This document shows positions 492 to 34,596 of a stretch of DNA of 44,974 nt, in pieces. This stretch comes from Myxococcota bacterium (GTDB taxonomy: Bacteria; Myxococcota_A; Polyangia; HGW-17). The stretch lies in assembly GCA_018821745.1 (NCBI GenBank), contig JAHJLU010000383.1, positions 1 to 44,974 on the forward strand. The letters are read 5' to 3'. The number at the start of each line of letters is the position of its first letter. The first letter of the stretch is position 1. Position numbers and translations under genes: made by a program. The notes beneath the pieces were generated by a model. That model was given only the letters and a program-made list of their open reading frames with translations. It did no database searches and was not told the DNA's origin.

Positions 492-2351
492 CTACAAAAA
501 GTCGTTGATCATTGCCTTGGGCATGGGATGTGGTCTGACCGGTCGCATACCCGGATTGACCATGACGGGAGGAACTGGTTTCACAGGCTTCATGGAGGCA
601 CCCACCTTGACCAGATTTACGAGCACCGGCATATCGAAGGCTGGGTAGAGTTTTTTCACCCAGGGGACAAATCCCGCGGCGGTCACCTTGATCTCAACGG
701 CGGTGATGTCACTTTTGGGGAGCTTGAAGATGGGTGTTTTGGAGACCTTCCCGTTGACCTCAATCACCGTCTCCACGTTGGGAGAGATTTGCAGCTGGAA
801 GGTGACGGTCTGGGGCAACACGGGCATGGGGGGAGCCATCTCGGGAGGATTGTTCACTAAATCATTTTTCATGACTGGGGGGCGGGTTGATGGAGCGATG
901 GTGTCTTCATCGGAGTCCCGCTGCCCGTAGTTGATATTAATCACGCCCGTGGGAATCAGCACCGCTGCCAGGAGCAGAACAGCCGCACCGATGATCAGGA
1001 TGATCTTTTTGCCGGAAGCTGCGGGGGCCAGCATGCTGGTGCTCCCCACATCGGAGATGGAGAACTTCTCCACCTCGGGGATGGTGGCACCGGCGATGAG
1101 CTTGGGAGAGAGATTGGATTCACTGGCCGCGAGGGTCTTTAGAATGGGGAGCAGCCGGCCTGAGAGCTCCTCGACGCTCCGTGGCCGGGACTCCTTCTCT
1201 TTTTTCAGACACCATAAAATTATTGCCTCGAGCTCGATATTGATTTCCACCAGCGCAGAGGGCAAATAGGGGGTCTGGGTGATATGGGCCTGTAAAATGG
1301 CCATGAAGGAGTCACCCTTGAAGGGGAGCCGCCCCGTGAACATTTCGTAGAGGATGATCCCCAGGGAGTAGATGTCACTGGCCGCATCGACAGACTGGCC
1401 CGCACACTGCTCTGGGCTCATATAGAAGGGTGTCCCGATGGGAACCCCTGTCTTTGTGTGCGAAGTGCGGAATCCGTCCTCGGTGAACTTGGCGATACCA
1501 AAATCCAGGAGCTTCACATAGTGATCTTCGTGGGGACGTTTCTCCAGGAAGATATTGTCGGGCTTGATGTCGCGGTGAATAATTCCTTTGTCGTGTGCCG
1601 CTCCGAGGGCCGACAGAATCTGCCTGAGGATCGTGTACGCCTCCAGGTACGGGACAACCTGAGTCTGCTTGATATAGGTGGTCAGGGTCTGCCCCTCGAG
1701 GTACTCCATGACGAAATATTGGGAGCCCTCTTCCATCTCGCCGAAGGAGAAAATATCGACGATGTTGGGATGGTGAATGGCGTTGACCGCTTTGGCCTCG
1801 GCCAGAAAGCGCCCCATCATGTCTTTATTTTCCGACAGGGAAGGCTTGAGAACCTTTATGGCTACACGTTTGCCAATGAGGGGATGGACGCCGCCGTAGA
1901 CAGAACCCATGCCACCGCTGCCCACAATACAGTTGACTTCGTATTCACCCACCCGGCGGCCAATCATCTCGTCCTGGATTTTCTTCACCTTGGTGATTTT
2001 CCGGTTGTCCTGGACGGTGAGGGAATCTTCGGGGTTGGGATCACTCTCCGCGGGGTCGACCACCCCGGGGGAGGAGGCATCCCGCAGATCGGGAGTGTTT
2101 GTGGAGATCCGGTTTTCACCCTGGGTACGCTCCCGCATTTCTTTCACAGGCGGGGGTGTTCCCATGAGGGTCCGCTGGTTGGCTACAGGGATCTCAAACC
2201 CGCATACACAGGCGTTTTCATTTTCTGAAATCTGGACGCCACATTCCGGGCATTTCATGGTCATGGCAGCAAAACCTGGGTTATTCTTTTCATGGCTCGG
2301 GGATTGTACCCCCGAATCTGCATGGACGTCAAGAACCTGGGAACAATTCAT
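492..2351 (-). CDS. Eukaryote-like Ser/Thr protein kinase: N-terminal zinc ribbon, one TM helix, PEGA-like extracytoplasmic C-terminal domain
   Basis: Kinase motifs: Gly-loop GSGGMGSVYGG, VAIKVLK lysine, catalytic loop HRDIKPDNIFL, DFGIAKF, GTPFYMSPEQ. Zinc ribbon CPECG...CVCG. TM segment IILIIGAAVLLLAAVLIPTGVI. The tail ISPNVETVIEVNGKVSKTPIFKL...IKVTAAGFVPW resembles a PEGA domain. The start is uncertain (ATG at 2351, 2264 or 2258; none has a clear SD). Confidence 0.9.
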   Translation of the reverse strand: MNCSQVLDVHADSGVQSPSHEKNNPGFAAMTMKCPECGVQISENENACVCGFEIPVANQRTLMGTPPPVKEMRERTQGENRISTNTPDLRDASSPGVVDPAESDPNPEDSLTVQDNRKITKVKKIQDEMIGRRVGEYEVNCIVGSGGMGSVYGGVHPLIGKRVAIKVLKPSLSENKDMMGRFLAEAKAVNAIHHPNIVDIFSFGEMEEGSQYFVMEYLEGQTLTTYIKQTQVVPYLEAYTILRQILSALGAAHDKGIIHRDIKPDNIFLEKRPHEDHYVKLLDFGIAKFTEDGFRTSHTKTGVPIGTPFYMSPEQCAGQSVDAASDIYSLGIILYEMFTGRLPFKGDSFMAILQAHITQTPYLPSALVEINIELEAIILWCLKKEKESRPRSVEELSGRLLPILKTLAASESNLSPKLIAGATIPEVEKFSISDVGSTSMLAPAASGKKIILIIGAAVLLLAAVLIPTGVININYGQRDSDEDTIAPSTRPPVMKNDLVNNPPEMAPPMPVLPQTVTFQLQISPNVETVIEVNGKVSKTPIFKLPKSDITAVEIKVTAAGFVPWVKKLYPAFDMPVLVNLVKVGASMKPVKPVPPVMVNPGMRPVRPHPMPKAMINDFL

Positions 2352-15674: not shown

Positions 15675-17390
15675 ATGTTGCAGTTGCAGGAATCTCCGGT
15701 CCAGAAATTCACTTCCATGGGTATGCGGGTCCTTTTTCTTGTTCCCATCCCCTGTCTTATCCTCTCTTCATGGCGACAGGGCAAGCCCTCCTGGGCGTTT
15801 TCTCTGGGGCTCATTCTGTTTTCTACCTTTGTGTGGGCCATCTGGGAGTTCCTTTTTTACTCCCTTCGGCAGAGACTGCTCAGGGCCAGGAGGGCCCTGG
15901 TGGGATGCAACCACATGATGAAGAAGCTTCAGACCTGTATTTTTCTGGTCCACGACAGCGAGGTTTTTCACCTGGGGGGCGCCATGTGGGAGGAGTGTCC
16001 CGAACACCTCCCGAAACAAATATCCGGTGTGTCCACCCTGCTGTCAGCCTATCCCTTCCTGAAACACAGCCTGCAGTGCGCTTTGTCCGGCCAGCCAATG
16101 GATGAGACAGTCATCTTCGGGGATCACTTCTTCGAGGTGGTGTGCCACCCAATGTCTTCCGGAGGAAGCAGCCGGCCGTGTATCCTGTGCATGATCAGGA
16201 ACATTACCTTCCTGAAAAAAAGTCAGGATGAGCGATCCTATTTTGCGAAACGGCTGGAGCAGGCGGGACGCATGGAGGCGCTGGGAACCCTCGCCGGTGG
16301 GTTTGCCCATGACTTCAACAACATCATCTTCAGCGCCATCGGGTTTACCGAAATGGCCATGGAGCAAACCTCCACAGACACCAAACTCCACACATGCCTG
16401 ACCCAGATCTCCCTCTCCTGTTCCCGGGCAAAAGAGCTGGTGGAGCAGATCTCGCTTTTCTCCGGCAGATCCATGGGAGAGAAGCAGCGTCTGCGACTCC
16501 ATCCACTCATTAAAAGCCTCGCAAAACGGATTGTGCGGGATCACAGTGTTCGAGTGAAGCTCCGTTTCTATCTGGATGAGGAGACACCCCCCGTCTTCAT
16601 GGATCCCACTGCCATGCACCTGGTCCTTTTTCACGTGATTGACAACGCAGTGAGGTCCATGGACGAAGAGGGCGGGGCCCTCACCTGCACGCTCTCCCTC
16701 GTGGGCGGCAGTCACGGTGACACACAGGACCGGGTTAAAATCACCATTAAAGATACGGGGTGCGGGATGAATGAGGAGACCCGGAAACGTATCTTCGATC
16801 CCTACTTCACCACCAGGCCCCCCGGTGAAGGCATGGGACTGGGGCTCGCCACGGCCTATGGAATTCTGTCCCAAAATGGCGGCTGGACCGAGGTAGAGAG
16901 CGTACCCCGGGAGGGAACAACCTTCACTTTCTACCTGCCGCCCTGCAGCACTGAACATTGTGAAACTGAGGAACCGCTCTCAACCGATAATCCCCGGGGA
17001 ACTGAGCACATCCTGGTGGTTGATGATGAGCCGCAGATCGAGACTCTGCTCCGCATCACCCTTGAATCACTGGGCTACCGGGTCACCTCAACCACCAAAC
17101 CCCAGCAGGCGCTGGCAGATCTCACCCAATCACTCCAGAGCTTTGATCTGCTGGTAACAGACCGCGTCATGCCGGGAATAACAGGAGAAGAGCTCACCGC
17201 CTTGGTGAATAAGATGGCCCCGGATTTTCCGGTACTCATGCTCACGGGTCAGGGCTTTGTCGCACCCCCAACCGGGGGGAATTCTCCCCATTTCGATCTA
17301 CTGTACAAGCCAACCAGAAAAAAAGAGCTCGCCCATAAGGTACGGGCGCTCCTCGATAAAGGAACCCATGGCACGGATACTCCTCATTGA
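15675..17390 (+). CDS. Hybrid sensor histidine kinase (TM N-terminus, PAS-like sensor, HisKA, HATPase, C-terminal receiver)
   Basis: H-box GGFAHDFNNIIFSAIG. ATPase boxes HVIDNAVRSM, KDTGCGMNEE and GEGMGLGLATAYG. Receiver ILVVDDEPQ...DLLVTDRVMPGITG...LYKP. Confidence 0.88.
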   Translation: MLQLQESPVQKFTSMGMRVLFLVPIPCLILSSWRQGKPSWAFSLGLILFSTFVWAIWEFLFYSLRQRLLRARRALVGCNHMMKKLQTCIFLVHDSEVFHLGGAMWEECPEHLPKQISGVSTLLSAYPFLKHSLQCALSGQPMDETVIFGDHFFEVVCHPMSSGGSSRPCILCMIRNITFLKKSQDERSYFAKRLEQAGRMEALGTLAGGFAHDFNNIIFSAIGFTEMAMEQTSTDTKLHTCLTQISLSCSRAKELVEQISLFSGRSMGEKQRLRLHPLIKSLAKRIVRDHSVRVKLRFYLDEETPPVFMDPTAMHLVLFHVIDNAVRSMDEEGGALTCTLSLVGGSHGDTQDRVKITIKDTGCGMNEETRKRIFDPYFTTRPPGEGMGLGLATAYGILSQNGGWTEVESVPREGTTFTFYLPPCSTEHCETEEPLSTDNPRGTEHILVVDDEPQIETLLRITLESLGYRVTSTTKPQQALADLTQSLQSFDLLVTDRVMPGITGEELTALVNKMAPDFPVLMLTGQGFVAPPTGGNSPHFDLLYKPTRKKELAHKVRALLDKGTHGTDTPH

Positions 17391-17751
17391 CGATGATTTT
17401 CAGATACGGCTCATGCTCCGGATGACCTTCGAAGAGGCAGGGTATACCGTTGAGGTGGCCGAAAACGGAAAAGAGGGGATAGCAAAATGTGCAGCCTTTG
17501 ATCCCCAGGTTATCATCACCGATATAATCATGCCCGAGATGGACGGTACAGAGACAATAATGAAGCTCTCAAAGAGTCACCCAAACACAAAGATCATTGC
17601 CATTTCCGGTGGTGGCAGAAACTCCCCGGAGGGGTATCTCTTTGTGGCAAAACAGCTCGGAGCTGATATGACCTTCTTTAAGCCCATTGACCGCAGTAAA
17701 TTGCTCGAAGCGGTGGCCCAATTGATTCCCGGGGAGATCAGTCAATCGTAG
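17368..17751 (+). CDS. Stand-alone CheY-like response-regulator receiver
   Basis: MARILLIDDD...VIITDIIMPEMDGTE...IIAISGG...FKPI. ATG 17368 overlaps the kinase 3' end by 23 nt. The longer track ORF N-terminus is out-of-frame read-through of the kinase. Confidence 0.88.
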   Translation: MARILLIDDDFQIRLMLRMTFEEAGYTVEVAENGKEGIAKCAAFDPQVIITDIIMPEMDGTETIMKLSKSHPNTKIIAISGGGRNSPEGYLFVAKQLGADMTFFKPIDRSKLLEAVAQLIPGEISQS

Positions 17752-17771
17752 TCGGTGTTTCGGTTTCATTA

Positions 17772-20681
17772 TCATTTTGCATGTGTATCTTCCCATTTCA
17801 GGCCCTGAACATCAATACCGAAGCGCTTTATTTTATTATAGATAGTACCCCTGGAAACCCCAAGGTCCCTGGCAGTCCTGGTGGCGGAGTATCCGTTCCT
17901 CCGAAGACTCCCCAGCAGCCAGGTGCGCTCCATTTCATCCAGCGATGTTCCCTCGGGGGGCAGGTTAAACCCTTGCGGAGTGGCCAAAGGTTTTGACACA
18001 GGCTGCTCAATGAGCACGGCGGGAATGGAGTCAATCAACTTAACTCCCTGGGGAACCACATTGACCTCGGCCTCGACGATATGTTCCAGTTCCCGGATAT
18101 TTCCCGGCCACTGATAGGTCATCATCCGTTCAAGAACCTTCGGGCCAAAGCGCTCCACTTTCTTTCCCATTTTTCCCGCGAAGCGCTCCAGAAAAACCTG
18201 GGCAAGCCGGGGAATATCGGCCGCACGATCTCGCAGCGGAGGGATATGAAGGTGCATCACTCTGAGGCGGTATAACAGATCGGAGCGAAACTGATTGATC
18301 TCCACCAGCCGCTCCAGGGGGCGATTTGTCGTGGAGATAATGCGCACATCAAACAGGTACTCCAGGGTCCCTCCGATGCGCCGATACTGGCGTTCCTGAA
18401 GAACCCTGAGGAGTTTTGCCTGCATCTCCAGGGGCATATCGCCTATTTCATCAAGCAACAGAGTACCCCCTTCTGCCAGTTCAAATTTTCCCGGTTTCCC
18501 ACCCCTCACCGCCCCGGTAAAGGAGCCCTCTTCATACCCGAACAGTTCACTCTCCAGCAGTTCGCCCGGGATGGCAGCACAGTTGATGGCGATAAATGGC
18601 CCTTCACTCCGGTTCCCCGCGTTGTGGACCGCCTGGGCAAAAACTTCCTTTCCCGTCCCGCTCTCGCCGGTGATAAGAATATCTGACTCCGCCTGGGCAG
18701 CAATCCGTGCCAACTTCACCTGAGCCATGAAGGCAGGATCGTTCCCTGTGAGATGCTCGAAGGTGTAGCGGGGAGCAGGGACGGCAATGGAGTGAACCGC
18801 CTTCTTCACCTTGCGCAACTCGGTCATGGTGATGACCTCCCCTGCGGTCTCCCCGAGGTGATCCGTGAGAGGCCGCGAGATGGTCAGCACCTCTCCACGG
18901 GGAAAGCGCAGGAGCGTCTCCGTACGCAACCGTTTCAAGTCACTGGGCAGGTTAATGGGGAGTGTATCGAAGGGGACCCCCAGAATCTTATTTTTCGGCA
19001 TGTCAAAGAGCGCGATTGCGGCGCGGTTGATGGACATCACCTGCCGATGACGGTTCAGGGTGATCACGCCATCTGAGATAGCATCCAGAGTGGCCTCCAT
19101 ATTAATCGCCGTCACTCGGGAAATGCGCTGCATGCGATAATTGTCCAGGAGGGTCCCGACCTGCAGAATCAGGGACTCTATCATGGTGATATCCATGGGG
19201 GAGAGCTTGCTGCCCGACTTGCGCTTGTCACAGTAAATGACGCCGTAACAGGCATTCCCTGCACGCACGGGGAGGGCCGTCACGTGGGGATCAGACGAAG
19301 ATGAGACCTGAACTGCCTTGCGGGTCTTGAAGGGGAAAAAGTCGGGGACAACTGCTTCATCCGAATTCAACACCATCAGCGCTATCCGGTGCCAGGTATC
19401 GAGGGGAGTGCCTCTGATGATGGAGCCCCGAATTTGCGATTCCGGCGCATTGGGCAAGAAGGCCACTCCATCGGACTCCACAACCTCCATGATAATACCC
19501 AGCGTTGTCCCCATAAGAAGATCCTCTTCCAGGATGGAACTGAGCTTACGCCCGTATTCCACAAGGCGCTCCAGTTTTTTCCGCTCAACCCCCATCTGAT
19601 TGGCGGACTCCACCAGCTCCCGTCGTTTTTTCTCCAGATCCATGAGTGTGTGGTGTGTGGTCAGAAAGTTACCGATGACATGCTCCACCGACTGTTCCAC
19701 ATCCACCCAGTGATTCTCTGGGGCTCCCAGGTGGATCTCCATCAGTTTTTTCAAATCCTCATCCAGATTTTTCGCAAGACGCCCCAGAAAGTAGGATAAT
19801 CGACTGGAGTGTTCGTTGATCTCCCGGTTTCCCAGTTGATCGGACTCTCTGCGTCCGAATTTTTTGAACCCCTGATTGGTCCGCTCCAGGTCCCGAACCG
19901 TCCCACATTGGTGATAGAGCGTGAGGGCCCGGGCAAAATACCAGGCCGGAGGCCGAGACTGATCTCTAACAAGACTGCTTCCCACGCGCCCCAGCTCCCG
20001 CCCGACAAAATTTCCAGCGGCCAGATAGAGGGCAGCCTCATAAAACTGGTTCCCCTCTATGTTGCAATTCTCAATGGCAATATTGAAGTACTTGAGGGCG
20101 TTCTCTCCATCGCCGTTTTCCGCCATGGCCAGCGCCAAGGCATGGTACGCCTCGACTCCCAGCAGCGCATTATGCTCGGCGGATATTTCCTTGAGCGCTC
20201 TGTGGGCGGCCTCCAGAGCGGCCTCGGCATACCCCGACTGCTGACTGATCCTGCTCCGGAGTATAAAGCACTCTATTTCCAACTCCTTGTTGTACCAGGT
20301 CCCCAGAAGGGACTGTGCCCACACAAGAAGAGAGTCGGCCTCATCGAGCGAGTTGGTCGCAAGCTTCAGTCTCGTTTCAATCAGAGAAAAGGCGATGCTC
20401 TGATCCTTGTCGAAAACACGGTCAGCCAGCTCACGCCCCTCCATGATAAATCTCTCGCTCTCGGCGAATTTGGAGAGCTCCAGGGTGCAGCGCGCCAGCA
20501 TGAGCAGGATTTTACCCCGATCACCCCCATCCCGGCGCACAAGAAGATCCGCATAGTAGAGCAGGGCCAGGGAATGATGATAAAAACCCTTCTCCATATA
20601 CCGCTGGCACACACCGAGGAGTTCGGTTGTATCCCGGGGCAGTATGATGCCAGGTTCCTTATGGGAATTTTTTTTGTTCAT
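17772..20681 (-). CDS. Sigma54-dependent transcriptional activator (bEBP) with TPR, GAF and PAS input domains and no receiver
   Basis: AAA+ core: Walker A GESGTGKEVFA, GAFTGA-type loop ELFGYEEGSFTGA, Walker B TLLLDEIGDM. C-terminal Fis-type HTH TARDLGVSRGTIYNKIKRFGI. The N-terminal ~380 aa are TPR-like helical repeats. Confidence 0.92.
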   Translation of the reverse strand: MNKKNSHKEPGIILPRDTTELLGVCQRYMEKGFYHHSLALLYYADLLVRRDGGDRGKILLMLARCTLELSKFAESERFIMEGRELADRVFDKDQSIAFSLIETRLKLATNSLDEADSLLVWAQSLLGTWYNKELEIECFILRSRISQQSGYAEAALEAAHRALKEISAEHNALLGVEAYHALALAMAENGDGENALKYFNIAIENCNIEGNQFYEAALYLAAGNFVGRELGRVGSSLVRDQSRPPAWYFARALTLYHQCGTVRDLERTNQGFKKFGRRESDQLGNREINEHSSRLSYFLGRLAKNLDEDLKKLMEIHLGAPENHWVDVEQSVEHVIGNFLTTHHTLMDLEKKRRELVESANQMGVERKKLERLVEYGRKLSSILEEDLLMGTTLGIIMEVVESDGVAFLPNAPESQIRGSIIRGTPLDTWHRIALMVLNSDEAVVPDFFPFKTRKAVQVSSSSDPHVTALPVRAGNACYGVIYCDKRKSGSKLSPMDITMIESLILQVGTLLDNYRMQRISRVTAINMEATLDAISDGVITLNRHRQVMSINRAAIALFDMPKNKILGVPFDTLPINLPSDLKRLRTETLLRFPRGEVLTISRPLTDHLGETAGEVITMTELRKVKKAVHSIAVPAPRYTFEHLTGNDPAFMAQVKLARIAAQAESDILITGESGTGKEVFAQAVHNAGNRSEGPFIAINCAAIPGELLESELFGYEEGSFTGAVRGGKPGKFELAEGGTLLLDEIGDMPLEMQAKLLRVLQERQYRRIGGTLEYLFDVRIISTTNRPLERLVEINQFRSDLLYRLRVMHLHIPPLRDRAADIPRLAQVFLERFAGKMGKKVERFGPKVLERMMTYQWPGNIRELEHIVEAEVNVVPQGVKLIDSIPAVLIEQPVSKPLATPQGFNLPPEGTSLDEMERTWLLGSLRRNGYSATRTARDLGVSRGTIYNKIKRFGIDVQGLKWEDTHAK

Positions 20682-20712
20682 TTTTTATCCCATCTTGTAC
20701 AAAATCTGAACA

Positions 20713-20741
20713 ATTATCCCATAATTCCCCTTTCATTTCAA
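20713..20741 (-). promoter_or_regulatory. Sigma70-like promoter candidate for the bEBP gene
   Basis: The minus strand reads TTGAAA (20741..20736), a 17-nt spacer, then GATAAT (20718..20713), in the AT-rich 100-nt gap. Confidence 0.35.
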
Positions 20742-20781
20742 TCCCTTTTTTGCCATCTAAAAAACCACTAAAATTCCTCAA

Positions 20782-22413
20782 TCAGGAAACCGGCTTATTG
20801 AGAACCTTTCGGATATGCAATGACAGCTCATTGATATCATATGGTTTCTGGATATAATCAAGGCAACCTTCCGTCATGAGTTCCTGAGCTGCCCCCTCGT
20901 AGGTGTACCCTGAGGTGAGAAGCACACGCATGGAGGGGACAATCTGACGAACACTCCGGAAGGTCTCCGTACCGTCCATATCGGGCATGATCATATCCAT
21001 AACAATCAAATCAATCGCTTCACCCATCTCCCTGACCCGGTTGACCGCCTCACGTCCACTCTCGGCGAGGATGACCTGGTATCCCAACTTGGCGAGCATA
21101 CTTCCGGCCGTTTTCAGAATAATTTCTTCATCGTCCACCAACAGCACGGTCTCGCTGCCCCGAAGAATTTCACCGGTCGCGGGGGTCATTTCCCGGGCCA
21201 CATCATGGGCCACGGGGAAATAGAGGAAGAAACTGGACCCCCTGTCAAGCTCCGAGGTAACATTCACAAAGCCCCCGTGGTTCTTCACTACACCATACAC
21301 AGAGGCCAGGCCGATCCCCGATGAACGGGAGCTGTCCTCCGCGAACTGCGGCTCAAAAATATGCTCCAGGATCTCCTTTTTGATACCATGTCCCGAATCC
21401 TTCACCACCACTTCCACATAATACCCTGCGGTCGCAAGATAGATGGACGCCTGCCGCTCATTGATCTCCATATTTCCGGTACTTATCTCGATGGTCCCCC
21501 CCTTCTCCATGGCCTGGGAGGCATTCACCAGCAGGTTCATGAGCGCCTGCTCTATCTGACTCTTCATCCCTTCAATGGGCAGAAGATTTTTGCCCGGGAA
21601 GGTCTTGACCTGAATCTCCTTGTGGGCTCTGGAGAACAGTCTCACGGTCTCGTCAATGAGCTCATCCAGTTGAATGGAGACCTGCTCATGGGCACCACCA
21701 CGGGCAAACCGCAAAAGCTGCCTGGTCAGTTTAGACCCGCTGACAATATACTGTTTAATACTCTCCAGGCGCATATAGTCCGGGTCGTCGCGCTCTTTCT
21801 CGTGCAGCAGGATCGACACATTCCCCATCATGGCCATTAAAAGGTTGTTGAAATCGTGTGCTATTCCTCCCGCGAGAGCTCCCGTCGCCTCCATCCGCTG
21901 CAAATACTGGAGCTGTCTGTCACGCTCACCGTCACTGACATGCTCCTCAACCCGCTTCCTGATACATCCGATGATGCTGGCCAAAAGCGTAAACACGGGC
22001 AGCGTTTCTTCAGCATCCATGGTGGTGCCGGGAAATGCAAAACAGAGCACACCCCTGATCTCCTCATGGCAGGGGACAGGAACAGCCACATTTCTGTGGG
22101 ATTTTTCCTCGGGAGCCTCAATGATCACCGGCTCGCCCAGGAGCGCCTTGGCCAACTCCGGTGGAAGATCTCCGAAAATTTTATTTGGGGAAGTCCCCGG
22201 GGAATCCCACCGCGCAACCGGACGCAGCAGGTTGTCGTCATTGAGGAGAAACACGGAGATTGCCGTGGCCCCCGTATGGGGAGCTACCATCTCCAGGTAG
22301 CCGTTGTACGAGAAGTCTCCCCGGGAGTCGTAGTGCTCATTGGCGCGTCCCAGAACATCAAGCAGTGATAACATACCGGAAGATAAAGGAAAACCTGTTT
22401 TTAATCCACTCAT
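20782..22413 (-). CDS. Hybrid sensor histidine kinase (GAF-like N-terminus, HisKA, HATPase, receiver)
   Basis: H-box GGIAHDFNNLLMAMMGN. ATPase boxes LLVNASQAM, KDSGHGIKKE and SGIGLASVYG. Receiver VLLVDDEEI...DLIVMDMIMPDMDGTE...LQKP. AAGGA lies upstream of the ATG. Confidence 0.9.
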   Translation of the reverse strand: MSGLKTGFPLSSGMLSLLDVLGRANEHYDSRGDFSYNGYLEMVAPHTGATAISVFLLNDDNLLRPVARWDSPGTSPNKIFGDLPPELAKALLGEPVIIEAPEEKSHRNVAVPVPCHEEIRGVLCFAFPGTTMDAEETLPVFTLLASIIGCIRKRVEEHVSDGERDRQLQYLQRMEATGALAGGIAHDFNNLLMAMMGNVSILLHEKERDDPDYMRLESIKQYIVSGSKLTRQLLRFARGGAHEQVSIQLDELIDETVRLFSRAHKEIQVKTFPGKNLLPIEGMKSQIEQALMNLLVNASQAMEKGGTIEISTGNMEINERQASIYLATAGYYVEVVVKDSGHGIKKEILEHIFEPQFAEDSSRSSGIGLASVYGVVKNHGGFVNVTSELDRGSSFFLYFPVAHDVAREMTPATGEILRGSETVLLVDDEEIILKTAGSMLAKLGYQVILAESGREAVNRVREMGEAIDLIVMDMIMPDMDGTETFRSVRQIVPSMRVLLTSGYTYEGAAQELMTEGCLDYIQKPYDINELSLHIRKVLNKPVS

Positions 22414-22662: not shown

Positions 22663-23328
22663 ATGAACAGAACATCATTTTCAATAATTGTCACGCTGAT
22701 GGCCACCCTGGTCCTTTCCGGGTGCCAGAAAAAATCAGACAAATCCAAGGAATCCAAACAGGATAAAACCACCAGGGGGCTTATAAACACGGGTGAGGCG
22801 GCCGTGGACAAGGCCATAAAATCACAAAAGCCCGTAGTGATAATCAACACTTCTCTGGGCACAATAGAGGTGGAGCTTGACGCGGTCAAGGCACCCGTCA
22901 CCAGCCGCAATTTTCTTCGATATGTGGTCCGCGGCCATTACACCAACACGATCTTTCACCGGGTCATGTCAAATTTCATGATCCAGGGTGGTGGCTTCAC
23001 TACGGAGAAAATCGAAAAGGGAGACCTGCTCGAGCCCATCAAGAACGAAGCAGGGAACGGGCTCTCCAATGTTCGGGGAACCATCGCCATGGCGAGGACA
23101 CCCAACCCCAACAGCGCCAAAGCCCAGTTCTTCATTAACGTCAAAAATAACGACAAGCTCGACAGAGCCAACTCCCGGGACGGTTTCGGATATGCCGTTT
23201 TCGGAAAGGTAATCAACGGCATGGACGTTGTCGACAAGATCCGATACGTCCGTGTCTCCAACCAGGGAGGCCCCTTCGCCAATCTCCCTGATACCATGGT
23301 GGTCATCAAGGGCATGAAGATTAAGTAG
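22663..23328 (+). CDS. ppiA: Cyclophilin-type peptidyl-prolyl cis-trans isomerase, lipoprotein
   Basis: Strong SD (AGGAGGAAAC-ATG). Lipobox LVLSGC. Cyclophilin blocks FHRVMSNFMIQGGGF, GTIAMARTPNPNSAKAQFFINV and GYAVFGKVINGMDVVDKI. Confidence 0.92.
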   Translation: MNRTSFSIIVTLMATLVLSGCQKKSDKSKESKQDKTTRGLINTGEAAVDKAIKSQKPVVIINTSLGTIEVELDAVKAPVTSRNFLRYVVRGHYTNTIFHRVMSNFMIQGGGFTTEKIEKGDLLEPIKNEAGNGLSNVRGTIAMARTPNPNSAKAQFFINVKNNDKLDRANSRDGFGYAVFGKVINGMDVVDKIRYVRVSNQGGPFANLPDTMVVIKGMKIK

Positions 23329-23357: not shown

Positions 23358-24254
23358 ATGGATGATTCGAGAGCGCCTCTCCAGCCGGGCGAGCAGATTT
23401 TTCAACGTAAACACCCCGAAGGCCTGGAAAAAGGTCAGCAGGATTCTCTGTGGCTGGAGATAGCACAGACCTCCATTCTCATTGAAACCTTCTTCGGACC
23501 GGCGCCAACTCCCTTCATCAGCGGGCGCATGGCTCCCTTCTCCATCAAACCCCGAAACCCTGAAATCATTCTGAGTATCACCTTCGATGACTCTCTTGTC
23601 CCCTTCACGGCCTCCTCGGAAATCGTCGCCGAGCGTAGTGGCGGGGACCTCCTCTTTTGTGCCCCCCAGTACCGGTTGCAACTGAGCCTGAGTCCGGGAG
23701 CAGTTACCCGGGGAACCGTCGTTTGCAGGGGCAGCTTTGAACAGATCCTGGGAGCCCTGAGGCTGGCCCTCGCGCACCACCTGGTCTTCACGGGCAGGGG
23801 ATTTTTGCTCCACGCTTCGTGTGTTCTTGTGGGGGACACGGCCCACCTCTTTCCCGGTCCCTCGGGGACCGGGAAAAGCACTGCCATATCCAGGGCTCCG
23901 GGCACCATCCTCGCCGACGAAATTACCGCGCTCACGGTTTCCCCCGGAGGGATTCTGCGGGCGAGCGGGACTCCCTTCGGCAATCGCCTGCAGCCTTCAT
24001 CGCTCCATTGCCCGCAACTTATCATCCACAAAATTGTCCATGCACAGGAAAACCGAGCCCTTCCCACCACGGCGGGAAGAATTGTTTCGATTTTACTGGA
24101 GTCTCTGGTGTTTTCTCCCACAGATGACGCCGAAGGCCAGATTATACTGGATTTGCTGATGAAAATCATCGATGGCTGCTCCTACGACATACTCCACCTG
24201 CGTGCCGATGGCAGCTTCTGGAGACCATACCTCCCCACGGGTGAAACAAAATGA
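23358..24254 (+). CDS. HPr-kinase-like P-loop protein (putative peptide kinase or accessory protein of a RiPP-type cassette)
   Basis: The C-terminal half GFLLHASCVLVGDTAHLFPGPSGTGKSTAISRAPGTILADEITAL matches the HprK C-terminal-domain layout (G-x-G-hydrophobic-G-x-SG-x-GKS...ADD/E). The stop overlaps the PqqD start (ATGA). Confidence 0.6.
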   Translation: MDDSRAPLQPGEQIFQRKHPEGLEKGQQDSLWLEIAQTSILIETFFGPAPTPFISGRMAPFSIKPRNPEIILSITFDDSLVPFTASSEIVAERSGGDLLFCAPQYRLQLSLSPGAVTRGTVVCRGSFEQILGALRLALAHHLVFTGRGFLLHASCVLVGDTAHLFPGPSGTGKSTAISRAPGTILADEITALTVSPGGILRASGTPFGNRLQPSSLHCPQLIIHKIVHAQENRALPTTAGRIVSILLESLVFSPTDDAEGQIILDLLMKIIDGCSYDILHLRADGSFWRPYLPTGETK

Positions 24255-28811: not shown

Positions 28812-28836
28812 ATGGAGGCACAAAAGGAGACTATAG

Positions 28837-29016
28837 ATGGAAAATTCATCGACACAAACACCCGAAAGTCGGACTGACAAACAGAAGAAACCCTACACTC
28901 CGCCACAACTGTTGAGTGAGAAGGTCTTTGCCACCGACGCCCTGGGAGGGTGCCGCATGGCATCGTTCGCCGACGGTTGTGGCACGCGCCGCGATGTCTA
29001 CCTCTCCTCCCTCTGA
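28837..29016 (+). CDS. Unlisted 59-codon ORF: candidate RiPP precursor peptide (lasso-type leader motif, GG junction, two-Cys core)
   Basis: My own translation is MENSSTQTPESRTDKQKKPYTPPQLLSEKVFATDALGGCRMASFADGCGTRRDVYLSSL, with stop TGA at 29014..29016. AAGGAG at 28824..28829 lies 7 nt before the ATG. The ORF starts 25 nt after the preceding stop and ends 4 nt before the next ATG. It is one codon below the apparent size cut-off of the ORF track. Confidence 0.5.
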   Translation: MENSSTQTPESRTDKQKKPYTPPQLLSEKVFATDALGGCRMASFADGCGTRRDVYLSSL

Positions 29017-29020
29017 TCAC

Positions 29021-29416
29021 ATGCCCTCTCTAGCGCTCACCCTCATCTCGTCCTCCATGGCACCCACCATCACCGAGGGGCAGACCGTCTGGTCCACCCC
29101 CTGCGTTTCCCCTTGTGCAGGGCAGATTGTGGTTATCCCCAGGGGCACCATCTATGTGGTCCACCGGCTGGTGCTGCGCTTCCCCGCCCCCTTTTCCCGG
29201 TGGGGCCTCGAGCGGGGTGACAATGAAAAATTTCCCCGCCTCGTTCACCTGAAGAAGCTGGCAGGCGTTGTGATCATGCCTGAACTCGGGCCCTCTCCCA
29301 CCCGCCGAAACCCCCTGGGAGAGCTGTGGTGGTGGGGACGCAGCATGGGAGGAAACCTCTATTACCGAATGATCACTCGCCTGCCGGTTATTGGAGCCAT
29401 CCATGCCGGTGCTTGA
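29021..29416 (+). CDS. S24/S26-family serine peptidase, ER/SipW-like (Ser-His) signal-peptidase homologue without an obvious membrane anchor
   Basis: SSSMAPTI (the S-M-x-P-T serine box), GQIVVIP, YVVHRLV (His in the position of the S26A/S24 Lys, as in SipW/Sec11) and ERGDNE (GDN box). An alternative in-frame ATG lies at 28994. No hydrophobic N-terminal anchor with either start. Confidence 0.6.
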   Translation: MPSLALTLISSSMAPTITEGQTVWSTPCVSPCAGQIVVIPRGTIYVVHRLVLRFPAPFSRWGLERGDNEKFPRLVHLKKLAGVVIMPELGPSPTRRNPLGELWWWGRSMGGNLYYRMITRLPVIGAIHAGA

Positions 29417-30026
29417 CAGGCCCCCCAGAACCATTGGAGTCACAGGCGGAATCGGATCAGGCAAGTCCACCTTCTCCAAAATGCTGGCCAGCCTTGGTGG
29501 TATTCATCTTGACGGCGATCAACTGGCGAGAAAAGCCGTGGAACCCGGCAGTGAAGGTCTCCGTCAGGTGCGAGACCGTTTTGGACCGCAAATTCTAATG
29601 GACGACGGGACCCTCAATCGGAGAGCGCTGGGAGCCCTGGTATTTTGCGACCACGCCGCTCTGGCCGATCTGGAGGCCATTTTACACCCCCTCATCGGTG
29701 ATCTCCTGAAAGCCACAATAAAAACCGGGCCCTATCCCATTATCTATGAGGCCACCCTGTTGTTTGAGGCAGGCCATCACCATTTCACGGATCTCACGGT
29801 CACGGTGGTGGCACCCCGTGAGATCACCCTCGCCCGCGTTGCAATCCGGGACAGTCTGGGGGTTCCACAAATCAGGGACCGTCTCAATTCCCAGCACGAC
29901 GACTCCTATCGTCTGAACCTCTCCGATATTGCCGTTCATAATAACAACGATCTTGAAAGTCTCGAGCAAAAAGCCCGTACCCTCCACGGGGACATTCTGC
30001 GGGGATCCTTCAAGAGCGTCTACTGA
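29403..30026 (+). CDS. coaE: Dephospho-CoA kinase
   Basis: IGVTGGIGSGKST P-loop at the N-terminus, then LDGDQLAR, ILHPLI and EATLLFE, with the typical ~200-aa CoaE size. ATG 29403 overlaps the peptidase 3' end by 14 nt. Confidence 0.9.
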   Translation: MPVLDRPPRTIGVTGGIGSGKSTFSKMLASLGGIHLDGDQLARKAVEPGSEGLRQVRDRFGPQILMDDGTLNRRALGALVFCDHAALADLEAILHPLIGDLLKATIKTGPYPIIYEATLLFEAGHHHFTDLTVTVVAPREITLARVAIRDSLGVPQIRDRLNSQHDDSYRLNLSDIAVHNNNDLESLEQKARTLHGDILRGSFKSVY

Positions 30027-31662: not shown

Positions 31663-34596
31663 ATGGAGACAGACATGAAAGATTACAACCCTTTAGAATT
31701 TGAAGAGAATATATACTCCTGGTGGGAAGAATCGGGATTTTTCAAGGCATCCGACAGCTCCGATGCTCCCCCCTATTGTATTGTCATCCCCCCGCCCAAT
31801 GTGACAGGGGCTCTGCATATGGGTCATGCCCTCACCAACGTCATCCAGGACACCATCATCCGGTGGCGCCGAATGCAGGGTTACAACACCCTGTGGCTTC
31901 CCGGCACAGACCACGCGGGGATCGCCACACAGGCCGTGGTAGAGAGAAACCTCCGCCGCGAAGGCACCTCCCGCCACGAGCTCGGGAGAGAGCGCTTTTT
32001 GGAGGAGGTATGGAAATGGAAAGAGCAGTACGGCGCCCGCATTACGGGGCAGCTTCGCCGTCTGGGCTCCTCCCTGGACTGGTCCCGCGAGCGGTTCACG
32101 ATGGACGAGGGGCTGAGCAACGCTGTCAATGAAGTCTTCGTGCGTCTTCACGAGCAGGGACTTCTGTACAGGGATAACCGCCTCATCAACTGGTGCCCTT
32201 CCTGCAGAACGGCGCTCTCCAACCTGGAAGTGGAGCACGAAGGCCACGAGGGTAACTTCTACCACATCAACTACCCCGTTGTGGACGCCCAGGGCAATCC
32301 CACCACGGATCACGTGACAGTCGCCACCACACGACCGGAGACCATGCTGGGCGACACCGCCGTTGCAGTGCACCCCGAGCCCGAAAAGGCCCTCACGGAT
32401 AAAATCAGAAAGGCCGAAAAAGACCTGGAAGGATCTTCCGAGGGCGAGCGCCCGGAGAAAGAAGCCCAACTCTCTGCTCTACGCAGCCGAATGGAAGAAC
32501 CTGTCCTCTCCAAGCTCAAGTGGCTTGCCTCCCTTATCGGGTCCAGTGTTCTTTTGCCCCTGACGGGACGATCCATCCCCGTGGTGGGCGATCTCCACGC
32601 AGACCCGGCGCTGGGAACCGGCGCCGTAAAAATCACGCCGGGCCATGACTTTAACGACTTTGAGGTGGGAAAACGGCAGCAGCTTGAACGCATCAACATT
32701 CTGAACGAAGACGGCTCTCTCAACGAAAACTGCGGGGAGTATGCGGGACTGTCCGTGCTCGACGCGAGACTCCGCGTGGTCGAGGATCTTACTGCGCAGG
32801 GCTACCTTGATCACACCGAGCCGCGGGATCACGAGGTCGGCCATTGCAGCCGCTGTGAAGCCGTGGTGGAGCCCATGCTCTCCCTCCAGTGGTTCGTGGA
32901 TGCCAAACCGCTTGCAGAAAAAGCTGTCGCCGCGGTCAGGGAAAAACAGACGGAGATTATCCCCCCCATGTGGGAGAAGGTTTTCTATCACTGGATGGAG
33001 AACATTGAAGACTGGTGCGTGTCCCGCCAGCTCTGGTGGGGACACCGCATCCCTGCCTGGTATTGCGATCATGGCCACATCACCGTGGCCCGGCAGACTC
33101 CCTCCTGCTGCAGTGTCTGTGGAGATGCCTCGGTGCATCAGGATGAAGATGTGCTGGACACATGGTTTTCCTCGGCCCTGTGGCCCTTCTCCACCCTGGG
33201 CTGGCCGGAAGAAACGCCGGCCCTCGCCACCTTCTATCCCAACGCCCTCATGGAGACCGGTTTCGACATCCTTTTCTTCTGGGTAGCCCGCATGATGATG
33301 ATGGGGATCCACTTCCTCGACGAGGTGCCCTTCAAGAAGGTGTTCCTCCATGCCATGGTCCGCGACAACGAAGGTCGCAAGATGTCAAAATCACTGGGAA
33401 ACACCATCGACCCACTGGATGTGATCGCCGGAATCAGCCTCCCGGACCTGCTGGCAAAGGTAGAAGCGGCACTCCCTCCGGAATCGGAGAAGGAGTCCAG
33501 AAAGCATCGCATCCTTGAGGGGATTTCCAAAAAATATCCCCAGGGGATCGAAGTCCACGGAACCGATGCCCTGCGCTTCACACTGGCGGTAATGGCCGCC
33601 CAGGGCAGAGATGTAAAACTCGATATGGCGCGCATCTCCGGGTATCGTGCCTTTGCGAATAAAATATGGCAGGCTACCACGGGCATGGTCCTCCCCCATC
33701 TGGGAGACGTGCGACCCCCCTCTCCCCATGACTGGCAAGAAAAACTGGAGCTCACGGATCGATGGGTCCTCTCCAGACTGTCAACCACGGTGGGTGAGGT
33801 CAACGACCACATGGAGGAGTTCCGCCTCAACGACGCAGCAGACTCTATTTATCGTTTCTTCTGGCATGAGTTCTGTGACTGGTACCTGGAGCTGGCAAAA
33901 CCAAACCTCTACGGCAACAACGGTGATGATGCAAAAGAAAGAACCGTGGCGGTTCTGTGCCACGTCACCGACACCTTCCTGCATCTCCTCCATCCATTCA
34001 TGCCCTTCATCAGCGAGAAGCTCTGGGGAGAGATCCCCCGCGCCGGGAGCGGAGCCCCTTCCCTCATGGTCTCCTCCTTCCCCGCACGGTCAAACTTCCC
34101 CTCATTCCCCGACGCCGAAGACGACATGGAACATGTCAAGCAGGCCATTATGGCCGTTCGGGCCATCAGGGGAGAGAACAGTGTCCCCCCGGGATCCTGG
34201 GTTCAGTTGTACGTTCACACCTCCGACACCCACACGAGGAAAGTCCTGGAAGAAAACAAGGCATACCTGGTTGGCTACCTCACCCGCGCCAACGACCTGG
34301 TCTTCACCAGCGAGCGCCCTGCACGGTGCGCCGCCTCACCCCTGCGCGGGGGTGAGCTCTTCATCCCCCTCGAGGGACTCGTTGACTTCGCCGGGGAGAT
34401 TCTCCGCCTCCAGAAGGCGCTGAAAAAGTCGGAAAAAGACCTGGAGAGTATCGAGAAAAAGCTGGGAAATCCAGCCTTTATCGCGAAAGCACCGCCGGAG
34501 GTCATAGCGGAAAACAGGGCCCGCCTCGAGGAGCACCAGAGCCGGGTCGATAAGATCAGGAAATCCCTCGAGCATTTTGAGGAAATGGTCAACTGA
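31663..34596 (+). CDS. valS: Valine--tRNA ligase
   Basis: PPPNVTGALHMGHAL (HIGH), GRKMSKSLGN (KMSKS), WCPSCRTALS and WCVSRQLWWGHRIP blocks, plus a C-terminal coiled coil. An alternative start at ATG 31675 (MKDYNPLEFE) follows GGAG by 6 nt. Confidence 0.97.
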   Translation: METDMKDYNPLEFEENIYSWWEESGFFKASDSSDAPPYCIVIPPPNVTGALHMGHALTNVIQDTIIRWRRMQGYNTLWLPGTDHAGIATQAVVERNLRREGTSRHELGRERFLEEVWKWKEQYGARITGQLRRLGSSLDWSRERFTMDEGLSNAVNEVFVRLHEQGLLYRDNRLINWCPSCRTALSNLEVEHEGHEGNFYHINYPVVDAQGNPTTDHVTVATTRPETMLGDTAVAVHPEPEKALTDKIRKAEKDLEGSSEGERPEKEAQLSALRSRMEEPVLSKLKWLASLIGSSVLLPLTGRSIPVVGDLHADPALGTGAVKITPGHDFNDFEVGKRQQLERINILNEDGSLNENCGEYAGLSVLDARLRVVEDLTAQGYLDHTEPRDHEVGHCSRCEAVVEPMLSLQWFVDAKPLAEKAVAAVREKQTEIIPPMWEKVFYHWMENIEDWCVSRQLWWGHRIPAWYCDHGHITVARQTPSCCSVCGDASVHQDEDVLDTWFSSALWPFSTLGWPEETPALATFYPNALMETGFDILFFWVARMMMMGIHFLDEVPFKKVFLHAMVRDNEGRKMSKSLGNTIDPLDVIAGISLPDLLAKVEAALPPESEKESRKHRILEGISKKYPQGIEVHGTDALRFTLAVMAAQGRDVKLDMARISGYRAFANKIWQATTGMVLPHLGDVRPPSPHDWQEKLELTDRWVLSRLSTTVGEVNDHMEEFRLNDAADSIYRFFWHEFCDWYLELAKPNLYGNNGDDAKERTVAVLCHVTDTFLHLLHPFMPFISEKLWGEIPRAGSGAPSLMVSSFPARSNFPSFPDAEDDMEHVKQAIMAVRAIRGENSVPPGSWVQLYVHTSDTHTRKVLEENKAYLVGYLTRANDLVFTSERPARCAASPLRGGELFIPLEGLVDFAGEILRLQKALKKSEKDLESIEKKLGNPAFIAKAPPEVIAENRARLEEHQSRVDKIRKSLEHFEEMVN

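Follow-up and report, generated by a model that had tools for sequence, protein, structure and literature searches.

Contig JAHJLU010000383.1 of a Myxococcota metagenome-assembled genome (MAG; GenBank assembly GCA_018821745.1), the whole of which, 44,974 nucleotides (nt), was analysed here as the window, carries on its forward strand a run of six genes in which neighbours overlap or stand apart by between 4 and about 140 nt. They encode a P-loop protein related to ScmC, a discrete protein of the PqqD family, a radical S-adenosylmethionine (SAM) enzyme with a SPASM domain, a large FG-GAP repeat lipoprotein, a peptide of 59 residues and a small putative peptidase of the Sec11/SipW type (Table 1). 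The peptide, MENSSTQTPESRTDKQKKPYTPPQLLSEKVFATDALGGCRMASFADGCGTRRDVYLSSL, is the subject of the present analysis, which considers what its open reading frame (ORF) may be doing in the company of these genes.

A first, sequence-only reading had singled out this ORF at 28837-29016, and going back to the sequence bore out its Shine-Dalgarno element with the spacer that follows, its translation and its tight junction with the next gene, the TGA stop (29014-29016) being followed after 4 nt by an ATG at 29021. Sites resembling a Shine-Dalgarno sequence also precede the peptide gene in four related loci (L015, L018, L019 and L007). The ORF had been presented as unlisted; it is indeed a real gene, but it was not unannotated, as GenBank already labels its product, in a Myxococcota MAG, a hypothetical protein (KKF84_10280; MBU1238881.1 / MBU1535698.1). 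Its family comprises ten members, that is, the window ORF and nine further homologues from metagenome contigs and one Deltaproteobacteria MAG. One of these is P0002; another, on L002, was the one locus returned by a metagenome scan; a third is an uncalled ORF at L005 6060-6230; and four (P0011-P0014) were the only matches of an exhaustive profile search through 1.84 billion representative proteins. A hand-built degenerate DNA pattern retrieved a further homologue from L022, in the Deltaproteobacteria MAG SZUA-580 (2182-2340, minus strand), the only true match in the species-representative genome collection; the second match of this pattern, on L021 (Salinispira), was discarded as a chance match, and a genome scan with a two-sequence peptide alignment gave no match. 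The last homologue, distant from all others, is a peptide of 55 residues on L007. The family is rare, and all its members come from uncultured organisms or metagenomes.

Tests of selection and of reading frames were made on the nine close members, that is, without the distant L007 peptide, and the invariance of residues refers to an alignment of eight sequences. Over the conserved stretch of 43 codons, comparison with the L001 locus (72% nucleotide identity) displays 18 synonymous against nine non-synonymous codon changes. Over all pairs of close members the ratio of non-synonymous to synonymous substitution rates (dN/dS, Nei-Gojobori) lies between 0.11 and 0.35 wherever dS is unsaturated, with the exception of the pair L019/L022 (0.52); in distant pairs dS is saturated and the protein can still be aligned. 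None of the other five frames stays open in all nine close members, and an antisense or overlapping-frame gene was rejected on this account. The variable part of the peptide is made of its N-terminal 15-20 residues; constraint begins at K18, and K18, Y20, P23, L25, V30, F31, D34, G37, C39, C48 and S57 are invariant. The pattern Y-x-x-P-x-L, expected by chance in about 0.8% of random 59-mers, is invariant in the close family. Because it is annotated, has nine homologues with low dN/dS, occupies the sole frame that they share and displays an invariant motif, the ORF is more than a product of chance: it is a real, conserved small gene under purifying selection. The search for homologues and the inspection of codon substitutions, which the sequence-only reading had put forward as ways to check its proposal, both came out in favour of the gene.

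Table 1. Features of the peptide gene and of the genes around it in the window.
Feature	Position	Strand	Basis
Cyclophilin peptidyl-prolyl isomerase (PPIase)	22663-23328	+	
ScmC-family P-loop protein, HprK/PEPCK (phosphoenolpyruvate carboxykinase) fold, 298 aa, putative peptide kinase	23358-24254	+	
Discrete PqqD-type recognition element of RiPPs (peptides synthesized by the ribosome and modified post-translationally), 91 aa	24251-24526	+	Pfam PqqD E 5.7e-14
Radical SAM/SPASM enzyme, 336 aa	24529-25539	+	Pfam Radical_SAM 1.2e-16, SPASM 3e-6
FG-GAP repeat lipoprotein, 1043 aa	25680-28811	+	Pfam FG-GAP E 8.7e-27
Shine-Dalgarno sequence AAGGAG	28824-28829	+	read from sequence; 7-nt spacer to ATG at 28837
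Proposed precursor peptide gene, 59 aa	28837-29016	+	translation, homologues, purifying selection, sole frame open in nine close members
Leader recognition motif K18-P-Y20-T-P-P23-Q-L25 (K-x-Y-x-x-P-x-L)	28888-28911	+	K18, Y20, P23, L25 invariant (8 aligned)
Predicted leader-cleavage zone F31-A-T33-D34-A-L-G37-G38	28927-28950	+	F31, D34, G37 invariant
Core segment C39-x8-C48, likely radical SAM target	28951-28980	+	invariant Cys, fixed spacing, nine close members
Ser57 in C-terminal [Y/F]-x-S motif, candidate phosphorylation site	29005-29007	+	S57 invariant (8-sequence alignment)
Soluble Sec11/SipW-type (S26B-like) peptidase, 131 aa, putative leader peptidase	29021-29416	+	NCBI name 'S24/S26 family peptidase'
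CoaE (dephospho-CoA kinase)	29391-30026	+	
Protein of 567 aa	29929-31632	+	no Pfam or NCBIfam match
ValRS (valyl-tRNA synthetase)	31663-34596	+	

The Y-x-x-P-x-L that had been taken for a leader motif of the kind bound by the PqqD proteins of lasso pathways is present, with Y20, P23 and L25 invariant, and its counterpart in the distant L007 peptide reads RRPYRKPGF. YxxPxL is documented as a lasso leader motif (PMC6784204), given elsewhere as [Y/W]xxPx[L/V/I/A/F/Y] (PMC13381572), and K-x-Y-x-x-P-x-L belongs to the class of motifs bound by the recognition proteins both of lasso peptides and of linear polyphosphorylated peptides, or LPPs (PMC6784204, PMC13381572). No hydrophobic segment was found in this leader, and its reading as a Sec signal peptide was rejected for that reason. 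Further down, the zone between F31 and G38 offers three candidate cuts. A cut between T33 and D34 would fit the LPP motif, F31-A32-T33 being aligned by hhalign with the F-E-T cleavage site that directly precedes the core of LppA; one between L36 and G37 would fit the spacing of lasso leaders, with Tyr at -17; and one between G37 and G38 would fit the rule of signal peptidases, which wants small residues at -3 and -1, here met with in Ala35 or Ser35 and in the invariant Gly37. We lean towards T33/D34, because it has an experimental precedent in LppS and because F-x-x is also found in L007, as F-E-R. The Gly-Gly junction noticed at the outset holds for its first residue only: G37 is invariant, but G38 is not conserved and is replaced by Ala or Tyr in some members. 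A double-Gly leader of the type cut by C39-family peptidases was rejected on this ground and because no such transporter is present.

The two core cysteines fared better, as C39 and C48 are both invariant and their C-x8-C spacing is fixed in the close members, within the core consensus G-x-C-x-[MIL]-[AT]-[SG]-x-[AP]-x-[GS]-C-[GR]-x(2-4)-[YF]-x-S. They are likely to be the targets, and obvious ones, of the radical SAM enzyme, which would make a thioether, or they may simply form a disulfide; a cross-link at the conserved aromatic residue of [YF]-x-S is a possible alternative. The C-terminal Ser, already singled out as a candidate kinase target, is conserved as S57 and would fit this role, and the peptide ends in Ser in three members (P0012, P0013 and the L007 peptide). 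In lasso as in LPP clusters, it is a precursor Ser that the HprK-like kinases phosphorylate (PMC8498205, PMC13381572), and we infer that S57 may be the corresponding site here.

The PqqD protein of the window is predicted to be a discrete recognition protein for leaders of the YxxP type. Its best NCBIfam match is lasso_PqqD_Strm, below cut-off, and its best relatives in the PDB are TbiB1 (5V1U/5V1V, E 2.3e-8, full length), LppB (9X8Z, 3.7e-3) and TfuB1 (6JX3, 4.3e-3), all three crystallised with YxxP-type leaders (PMC13381572). In LppB, N33 fixes the kink at leader Pro-13 and D70 hydrogen-bonds Tyr-16 (PMC13381572); the HMMER alignment places them opposite N33 and D70 of the window protein, and L32, L78 and L83 of the second pocket match as well. 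D70, L32, L78 and L83 are invariant in the five PqqD proteins found with the gene set discussed here, that of L007 included.

The sequence-only reading overlooked the next gene as coding for a Sec11/SipW-type leader peptidase, just as it overlooked the FG-GAP gene as a member of the same set. Searches of Pfam, NCBIfam and PDB with the single sequence of the 131-aa protein gave nothing significant, and neither did BLASTP between it and its L007 counterpart. A profile made of nine such proteins matches human SEC11A (7P2P) at 2.8e-7; next come signal peptidases I of bacteria, followed by a weak match to LexA. S12, H48 and D67 align with the SEC11A motifs SMEP, HRV and GDN, which we take to carry the catalytic Ser, His and Asp of that enzyme; Ser12 is present in every member with its N-terminus included, and M13, P15, G34, H48, R49, V51, G66, D67 and W105 are invariant in the family. 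Pfam Peptidase_S24 is matched by seven of the nine members, the L005 orthologue matches TIGR02228 (archaeal-type signal peptidase I) at 1.3e-4, and the family profile reaches 30 bits over about 90 residues against enzymes of the LppS type. No member has a transmembrane-grade hydrophobic segment, and the peptidase is therefore probably soluble. Judged from these alignments, the protein would be a Ser-His-Asp peptidase of the Sec11/SipW type and, putatively, the leader peptidase.

The 298-aa P-loop protein, too, gave nothing significant in single-sequence searches of Pfam, NCBIfam and PDB. Its homologues P0008, P0009 and P0010 carry Pfam PF27840 'ScmC', and P0010 matches TIGR04249 ScmC (6e-11), HprK_rel_A (2e-6) and HprK_rel_B, all below their curated cut-offs. 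The AlphaFold2 (AF2) model of the window protein (mean predicted local distance difference test score, pLDDT, 81.5; predicted template modelling score, pTM, 0.83), compared with the PDB by Foldseek, retrieves ATP-dependent PEPCK (5e-6) and the HPr kinase/phosphorylase HprK/P (1KO7, 3.8e-5). H152, GPSGTGKST at 167-175, D187-E188 and R210 are invariant in the family, a set which presumably resembles the His, Walker A, Asp-Asp and Arg of HprK/P. The label 'HprK-like' that the protein had received thus appears supported at the level of fold and motifs, and it may well be a kinase. In L013 (1127-2302, P0009) a single protein of 391 residues fuses an ScmC-like and a PqqD domain, and this Rosetta stone suggests that the P-loop protein would act on the PqqD-bound peptide. 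On L014, a short Logan contig, two ORFs (227 and 83 aa) before PqqD stand in for the one ScmC-like gene (81-979), and the split would come from a frameshift or from faulty assembly.

In the radical SAM enzyme we find CNLSCAHC at residues 28-35 and a full set of SPASM cysteines (C232, C250, C287, C290, C296, C299 and C318). Its best NCBIfam scores are of 50-74 bits, against cut-offs of 340-850, and the PDB yields generic radical SAM matches only. No recognition domain was found in its 336 residues, N-terminus included, and the enzyme should therefore depend on the discrete PqqD protein. The features looked for in a radical SAM/SPASM maturase, namely CxxxCxxC, the SPASM cysteines, a recognition element and a Cys-bearing precursor, are all found here.

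The FG-GAP protein has the lipobox LGAVSC, followed by DDD. In every informative locus, even in the rearranged L007, its gene is the immediate upstream neighbour of the peptide gene, and it counts as a conserved member of the cassette. In L001, L002, L005, L015, L018 and L019 the peptide gene has the 3' end of an FG-GAP gene upstream (the products share the C-terminus …GRVT[IV]I[YHK]) and a gene for a peptidase-like protein of 101-131 residues downstream, then CoaE where the contig reaches that far. In L020, a contig of 714 bp, the flanking ORFs are truncated and were left unassigned; the L022 scaffold has an N-filled gap beside the peptide, so that its context is unreliable, and no recognisable FG-GAP or full peptidase gene stands beside the peptide there.

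Longer contigs were obtained through homologues of the 298-aa P-loop protein. L005/L006 displays, in the window's order, the genes for an ScmC-like protein (37% identical to that of the window), PqqD, the radical SAM/SPASM enzyme, FG-GAP, peptide, peptidase and CoaE. In a distant lineage (L007-L012, with about 25% identity to the window for ScmC and 23% for the radical SAM enzyme) one meets PqqD, a 1911-aa FG-GAP lipoprotein, the 55-aa ORF, ScmC, the radical SAM/SPASM enzyme and a peptidase-like protein of 161 residues, in a block flanked by unrelated housekeeping genes. This 55-aa ORF, MKPEDPQSPPPAPKPRRPYRKPGFERSLAFERSSLACSGVKNTAGFPVGNCSMQS, lies between the FG-GAP and ScmC genes and is the only small ORF there; its product has a leader of the form basic-basic-P-Y-x-x-P-x-F, then F-E-R, two Cys and a C-terminal Ser, and the leader matches the family profile with an hhalign E of 1.2e-4. 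That the same six components recur in shuffled order argues that the cassette is a functional unit and not inherited synteny. The link that had been drawn between the ORF and the genes found 3-5 kb upstream of it, for the HprK-like, PqqD and radical SAM proteins, has therefore held: the set co-occurs with the peptide in the window, in L005/L006 and, rearranged, in L007. L003 and L019 come from the same Joint Genome Institute (JGI) sample, 3300027985, and may together make up a single locus of this kind, each holding one half.

We consider it probable that the product of ORF 28837-29016 is the precursor in a cassette which matures a peptide with the help of a recognition protein and is made of the six genes named at the outset. 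The Lys-rich leader (residues 1 to about 33-37) would offer K18-x-Y20-x-x-P23-x-L25 to the discrete PqqD protein, in the knobs-into-holes manner solved for lasso B1 and LppB complexes, and PqqD would hand the bound precursor to the radical SAM/SPASM enzyme, which would modify the C39-x8-C48 core, a thioether cross-link derived from Cys being the most likely product. The precursor would also be passed to the ScmC-like protein of HprK/PEPCK fold for the probable phosphorylation of a conserved Ser (S57 or S43), and the soluble Ser12-His48-Asp67 peptidase would then cut the leader off in the F31-G38 zone, much as LppS does. All the enzymatic steps of this scheme, as well as the place of the cut and the part played by the FG-GAP lipoprotein, are what we infer from a real gene under purifying selection, from conserved motifs, from the co-occurrence of six genes and from enzymes assigned to a fold or family.

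Several facts weigh against this explanation. It is a reading made at the level of genes, and the whole cassette is visible in only three independent contig sets, two of them from one lineage. For the L007 peptide homology is weak, with an hhalign probability of 55%, and an FG-GAP gene of 3.1 kb separates the peptide gene from that of the radical SAM enzyme. An exporter is missing from the cassette, and where LppK would have its target Ser, at core position 3, one finds Leu, Phe or Tyr. The ScmC-like protein owes the name of kinase to its fold and motifs only and misses every curated family cut-off, while the AF2 model of the peptidase, made from a two-sequence alignment, is poor (pLDDT 34).

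The sequence-only reading had gone another way from the same leader, towards a lasso precursor: a PqqD protein of the B1 type would bind the leader, the core would begin at the second Gly, Gly38, and close a Gly1-Asp9 macrolactam, and the kinase and radical SAM enzyme would tailor it. The YxxPxL leader, a PqqD protein closest to the lasso B1 proteins TbiB1 and TfuB1, an Asp nine residues on when counted from Gly38 and an HprK-fold protein nearby, as in paeninodin clusters (PMC8498205), are what such a reading would expect. Yet no Asn_synthase-type cyclase (PF00733) was found on the long ORFs of the 45-kb contig, nor in L005 or L007, and the same three are devoid of a transglutaminase-type B2 protease. 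Asp46, which would have to close the ring, is Glu in P0011, Gln in P0012 and P0013 and Thr in P0014, hence neither Asp nor Glu in three of the nine close members; Gly38 is itself not conserved; and there is no Thr at -2, an absence already noticed in the sequence-only reading, residues 35 and 36 being Ala/Ser and Leu/Phe/Tyr. The slot of the leader peptidase is filled by a Sec11-type peptidase, as in the LPP family, which has no cyclase (PMC13381572). The lasso reading is by now largely refuted, and we reject it, leaving it hardly any chance.

The ORF might also code for a conserved small protein foreign to radical SAM/PqqD chemistry, for example one that partners or regulates either the FG-GAP protein or the peptidase, with the radical SAM cassette acting on something else. 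Short contigs do display only a block made of FG-GAP, peptide, peptidase and CoaE, and 3.3 kb lie between the peptide gene and the radical SAM gene. Against this, the proteins of known structure that come closest to the neighbouring PqqD protein bind exactly this invariant leader motif, LPP precursors have a homologous leader, and in L007 the small ORF sits inside the cassette, between FG-GAP and ScmC, with no other small-ORF substrate at hand, which makes this alternative very improbable. A further proposal follows the same upstream steps as the maturation cassette and differs in the end function: the modified peptide would serve the FG-GAP beta-propeller lipoprotein as a small subunit or as a ligand held tightly to it, rather than being a free natural product. 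There is a model for this in QhpC, the gamma subunit of quinohemoprotein amine dehydrogenase (QHNDH), which is cross-linked by a radical SAM/SPASM enzyme and processed by a dedicated peptidase. The FG-GAP gene adjoins the peptide gene in every locus and stays in the cassette in the rearranged L007, and the cassette has neither exporter nor immunity gene. The interaction, however, would be read from gene adjacency, which in a close lineage could be inherited synteny, and the lipoprotein would be exported by Sec and Lsp, whereas the peptide lacks a signal sequence and the peptidase a membrane anchor; we hold this end function to be rather unlikely. In its boldest form, that of an unrecognised system maturing a radical-SAM-cross-linked, possibly phosphorylated peptide of 22-26 residues for an FG-GAP surface lipoprotein, as a bound subunit or ligand like QhpC, the proposal is speculative and unlikely to the same degree. 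If it were true, the K-x-Y-x-x-P…F-x-T leader would be the missing precursor type of ScmC-family (SynChlorMet-like) cassettes, and lasso, LPP and radical SAM pathways would be linked by one shared recognition and peptidase module.

To place the proposed maturation cassette among known systems, it is worth recalling that Popov et al. (Nat Commun 2026; PMC13381572) have described in Bacillota the LPP clusters, built around LppA, LppB, LppK and LppS. LppS is an archaeal-type signal peptidase (S29/H68/D93) that cuts after F-3 E-2 T-1 only if the recognition protein presents the precursor; LppB is that discrete recognition protein, and LppK an HprK-like kinase that polyphosphorylates core Ser3. The core genes further include an NTP-transferase along with an exporter resembling MsbA, and the leader motif reads YxxPxVLxHQxIxFETxxS (PMC13381572). 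According to the authors, leader peptidases of the signal-peptidase type had not been met before in RiPP pathways, and LPPs occur in Bacillota only; radical SAM, SPASM and FG-GAP are named nowhere in the article or its supplements (PMC13381572).

Alignment of the LPP precursors (Supplementary Data 1 of that article, e.g. MTKKPYAPPSVLSHQKVSFETKASG…) with the peptide family gives an hhalign E of 0.0017, with 50% identity over 22 columns and one gap of two residues, F31-A32-T33 being found opposite F-E-T. The leaders may be written KKPYxPPxL..S..VF[A/E]T here and KKxYxxPxVLxHQxIxFET in LPPs. The likeness extends to a Sec11/SipW-like Ser-His-Asp peptidase, predicted to act on the leader, to a discrete PqqD protein with conserved N33 and D70, predicted to bind YxxP, to a P-loop protein of HprK fold, here of the ScmC branch and set beside LppK by fold and motifs, to the absence of a lasso cyclase in either system and to the two-Cys cores of several LPP precursors. 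Examples with exactly two core Cys are …PHPCDNGGHTGSPNCK, …SHVCDGPAGDKNPHCD and …SNCVPPSFPGQYPGGNICV…, and their clusters have no radical SAM enzyme. The differences are as plain: a radical SAM/SPASM enzyme and an FG-GAP lipoprotein are present here and go unmentioned for LPPs, no NTP_transf or ABC transporter domain was found in the window, L005 or L007, the Pro and Phe of the leader stand closer together by two residues, Leu, Phe or Tyr occupies core position 3, as against the phospho-Ser of LppA, the peptidase is devoid of the long N-terminal helix of LppS, and the host belongs to Myxococcota, not to Bacillota. With recognition protein, peptidase, kinase-like protein and homologous leader in common, the cassette appears from these sequence comparisons to be a relative of LPP clusters.

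The minor network clusters of the LPP study include signal-peptidase-like proteins of Myxococcota (PMC13381572). One, EYF04409.1 of Chondromyces apiculatus, is listed with a co-located recognition protein, EYF04406.1, while RMH36650.1 and RPJ14135.1 are listed without any; the window-type peptidase profile scores 20-30 bits against each of the three (compare L007 8442-8927). A related cassette may thus be present in a cultured myxobacterium.

With the paeninodin type of lasso clusters (PMC8498205, PMC6784204) the cassette shares a [Y/W]xxPxL leader, a discrete B1/PqqD protein, a Ser at or near the C-terminus and an HprK-like kinase, which there acts on the linear precursor (PMC8498205); it differs in having no cyclase and no B2 protease, no conserved ring-closing acid and no Thr at -2. 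SynChlorMet (SCM) cassettes (ScmC/ScmD/ScmE/ScmF; TIGR04248-04251, PF27840) combine, as here, an ScmC-family P-loop protein, a PqqD-family protein and radical SAM/SPASM chemistry, but they have two radical SAM enzymes against one, and the peptidase and FG-GAP genes are extra in the present case. Their equivalog cut-offs are not reached: the ScmC-like protein of the window has no match, the radical SAM enzyme obtains 71 bits on ScmE for a cut-off of 400, the PqqD protein has no match to ScmD at E<=0.01, and that of L007 obtains 17.7 bits on ScmD for a cut-off of 100. To our knowledge, and going by the text of TIGRFAMs, no precursor had been identified for SCM cassettes. Sactipeptides, ranthipeptides and the QhpD/QhpC/QhpE system resemble the cassette by a SPASM enzyme, a short core containing Cys, a leader and a dedicated leader peptidase, and the product of QHNDH pairs with a beta-propeller protein; there is, however, no family membership at the sequence level with these radical SAM thioether RiPPs or with Qhp, and only two Cys are present here. 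In the literature we found no papers on SynChlorMet/ScmC, none on HPr kinase or FG-GAP together with PqqD and radical SAM, and none combining signal peptidase, radical SAM, a RiPP recognition element and a kinase.

The cassette is thus so far undescribed, and is to be taken as a lead for genome mining, not yet as a solved system. Signal-peptidase-type leader peptidases were first reported in RiPPs in 2026, and only for the kinase-dependent linear peptides of Bacillota (PMC13381572); here the module of recognition protein, peptidase, kinase-like protein and leader would be found in Myxococcota, joined to a radical SAM/SPASM enzyme and to a large surface lipoprotein. If confirmed, this would extend the LPP-type family across phyla and add a new post-translational chemistry to it, while giving a concrete substrate to an orphan radical SAM enzyme and to a protein of the ScmC type. 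One leader-recognition module would then have been reused by lasso, LPP and radical SAM pathways.

As for the surroundings, a scan for promoters and terminators along the cassette run found no excess over shuffled sequences, the long ORFs of the 45-kb contig code neither for an Asn-synthetase-type cyclase or transglutaminase-type protease nor for an ABC transporter or NTP-transferase, and no exporter or immunity gene was found in the cassette. A cyclophilin PPIase gene lies directly upstream of the ScmC-like gene both in the window, with a gap of 30 nt, and in L003 (9267-9974), and that of L013 (459-1130) has 4 nt in common with the ScmC-PqqD fusion gene; the distant L007 cassette is without a cyclophilin gene. 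Because the leader is rich in Pro (PYTPP), this enzyme could be an accessory factor. On the other side, CoaE, as listed with a TTG start, begins within the peptidase gene, sharing the last 26 nt with it, and follows it in every Myxococcota-type locus that is long enough; though seemingly co-transcribed, it is probably a housekeeping passenger. The place of the 567-aa ORF after CoaE is taken by large uncharacterised ORFs cut by the contig end in L005 (7235-8698) and L018 (3099-4025), matched by position alone, and this ORF is absent from the L007 cassette. Upstream, the stretch 15675-22413 codes for hybrid histidine kinases and a 969-aa sigma-54 activator and is syntenic with L003 983-9066; this block may regulate the cassette or may reflect synteny inherited with the lineage.

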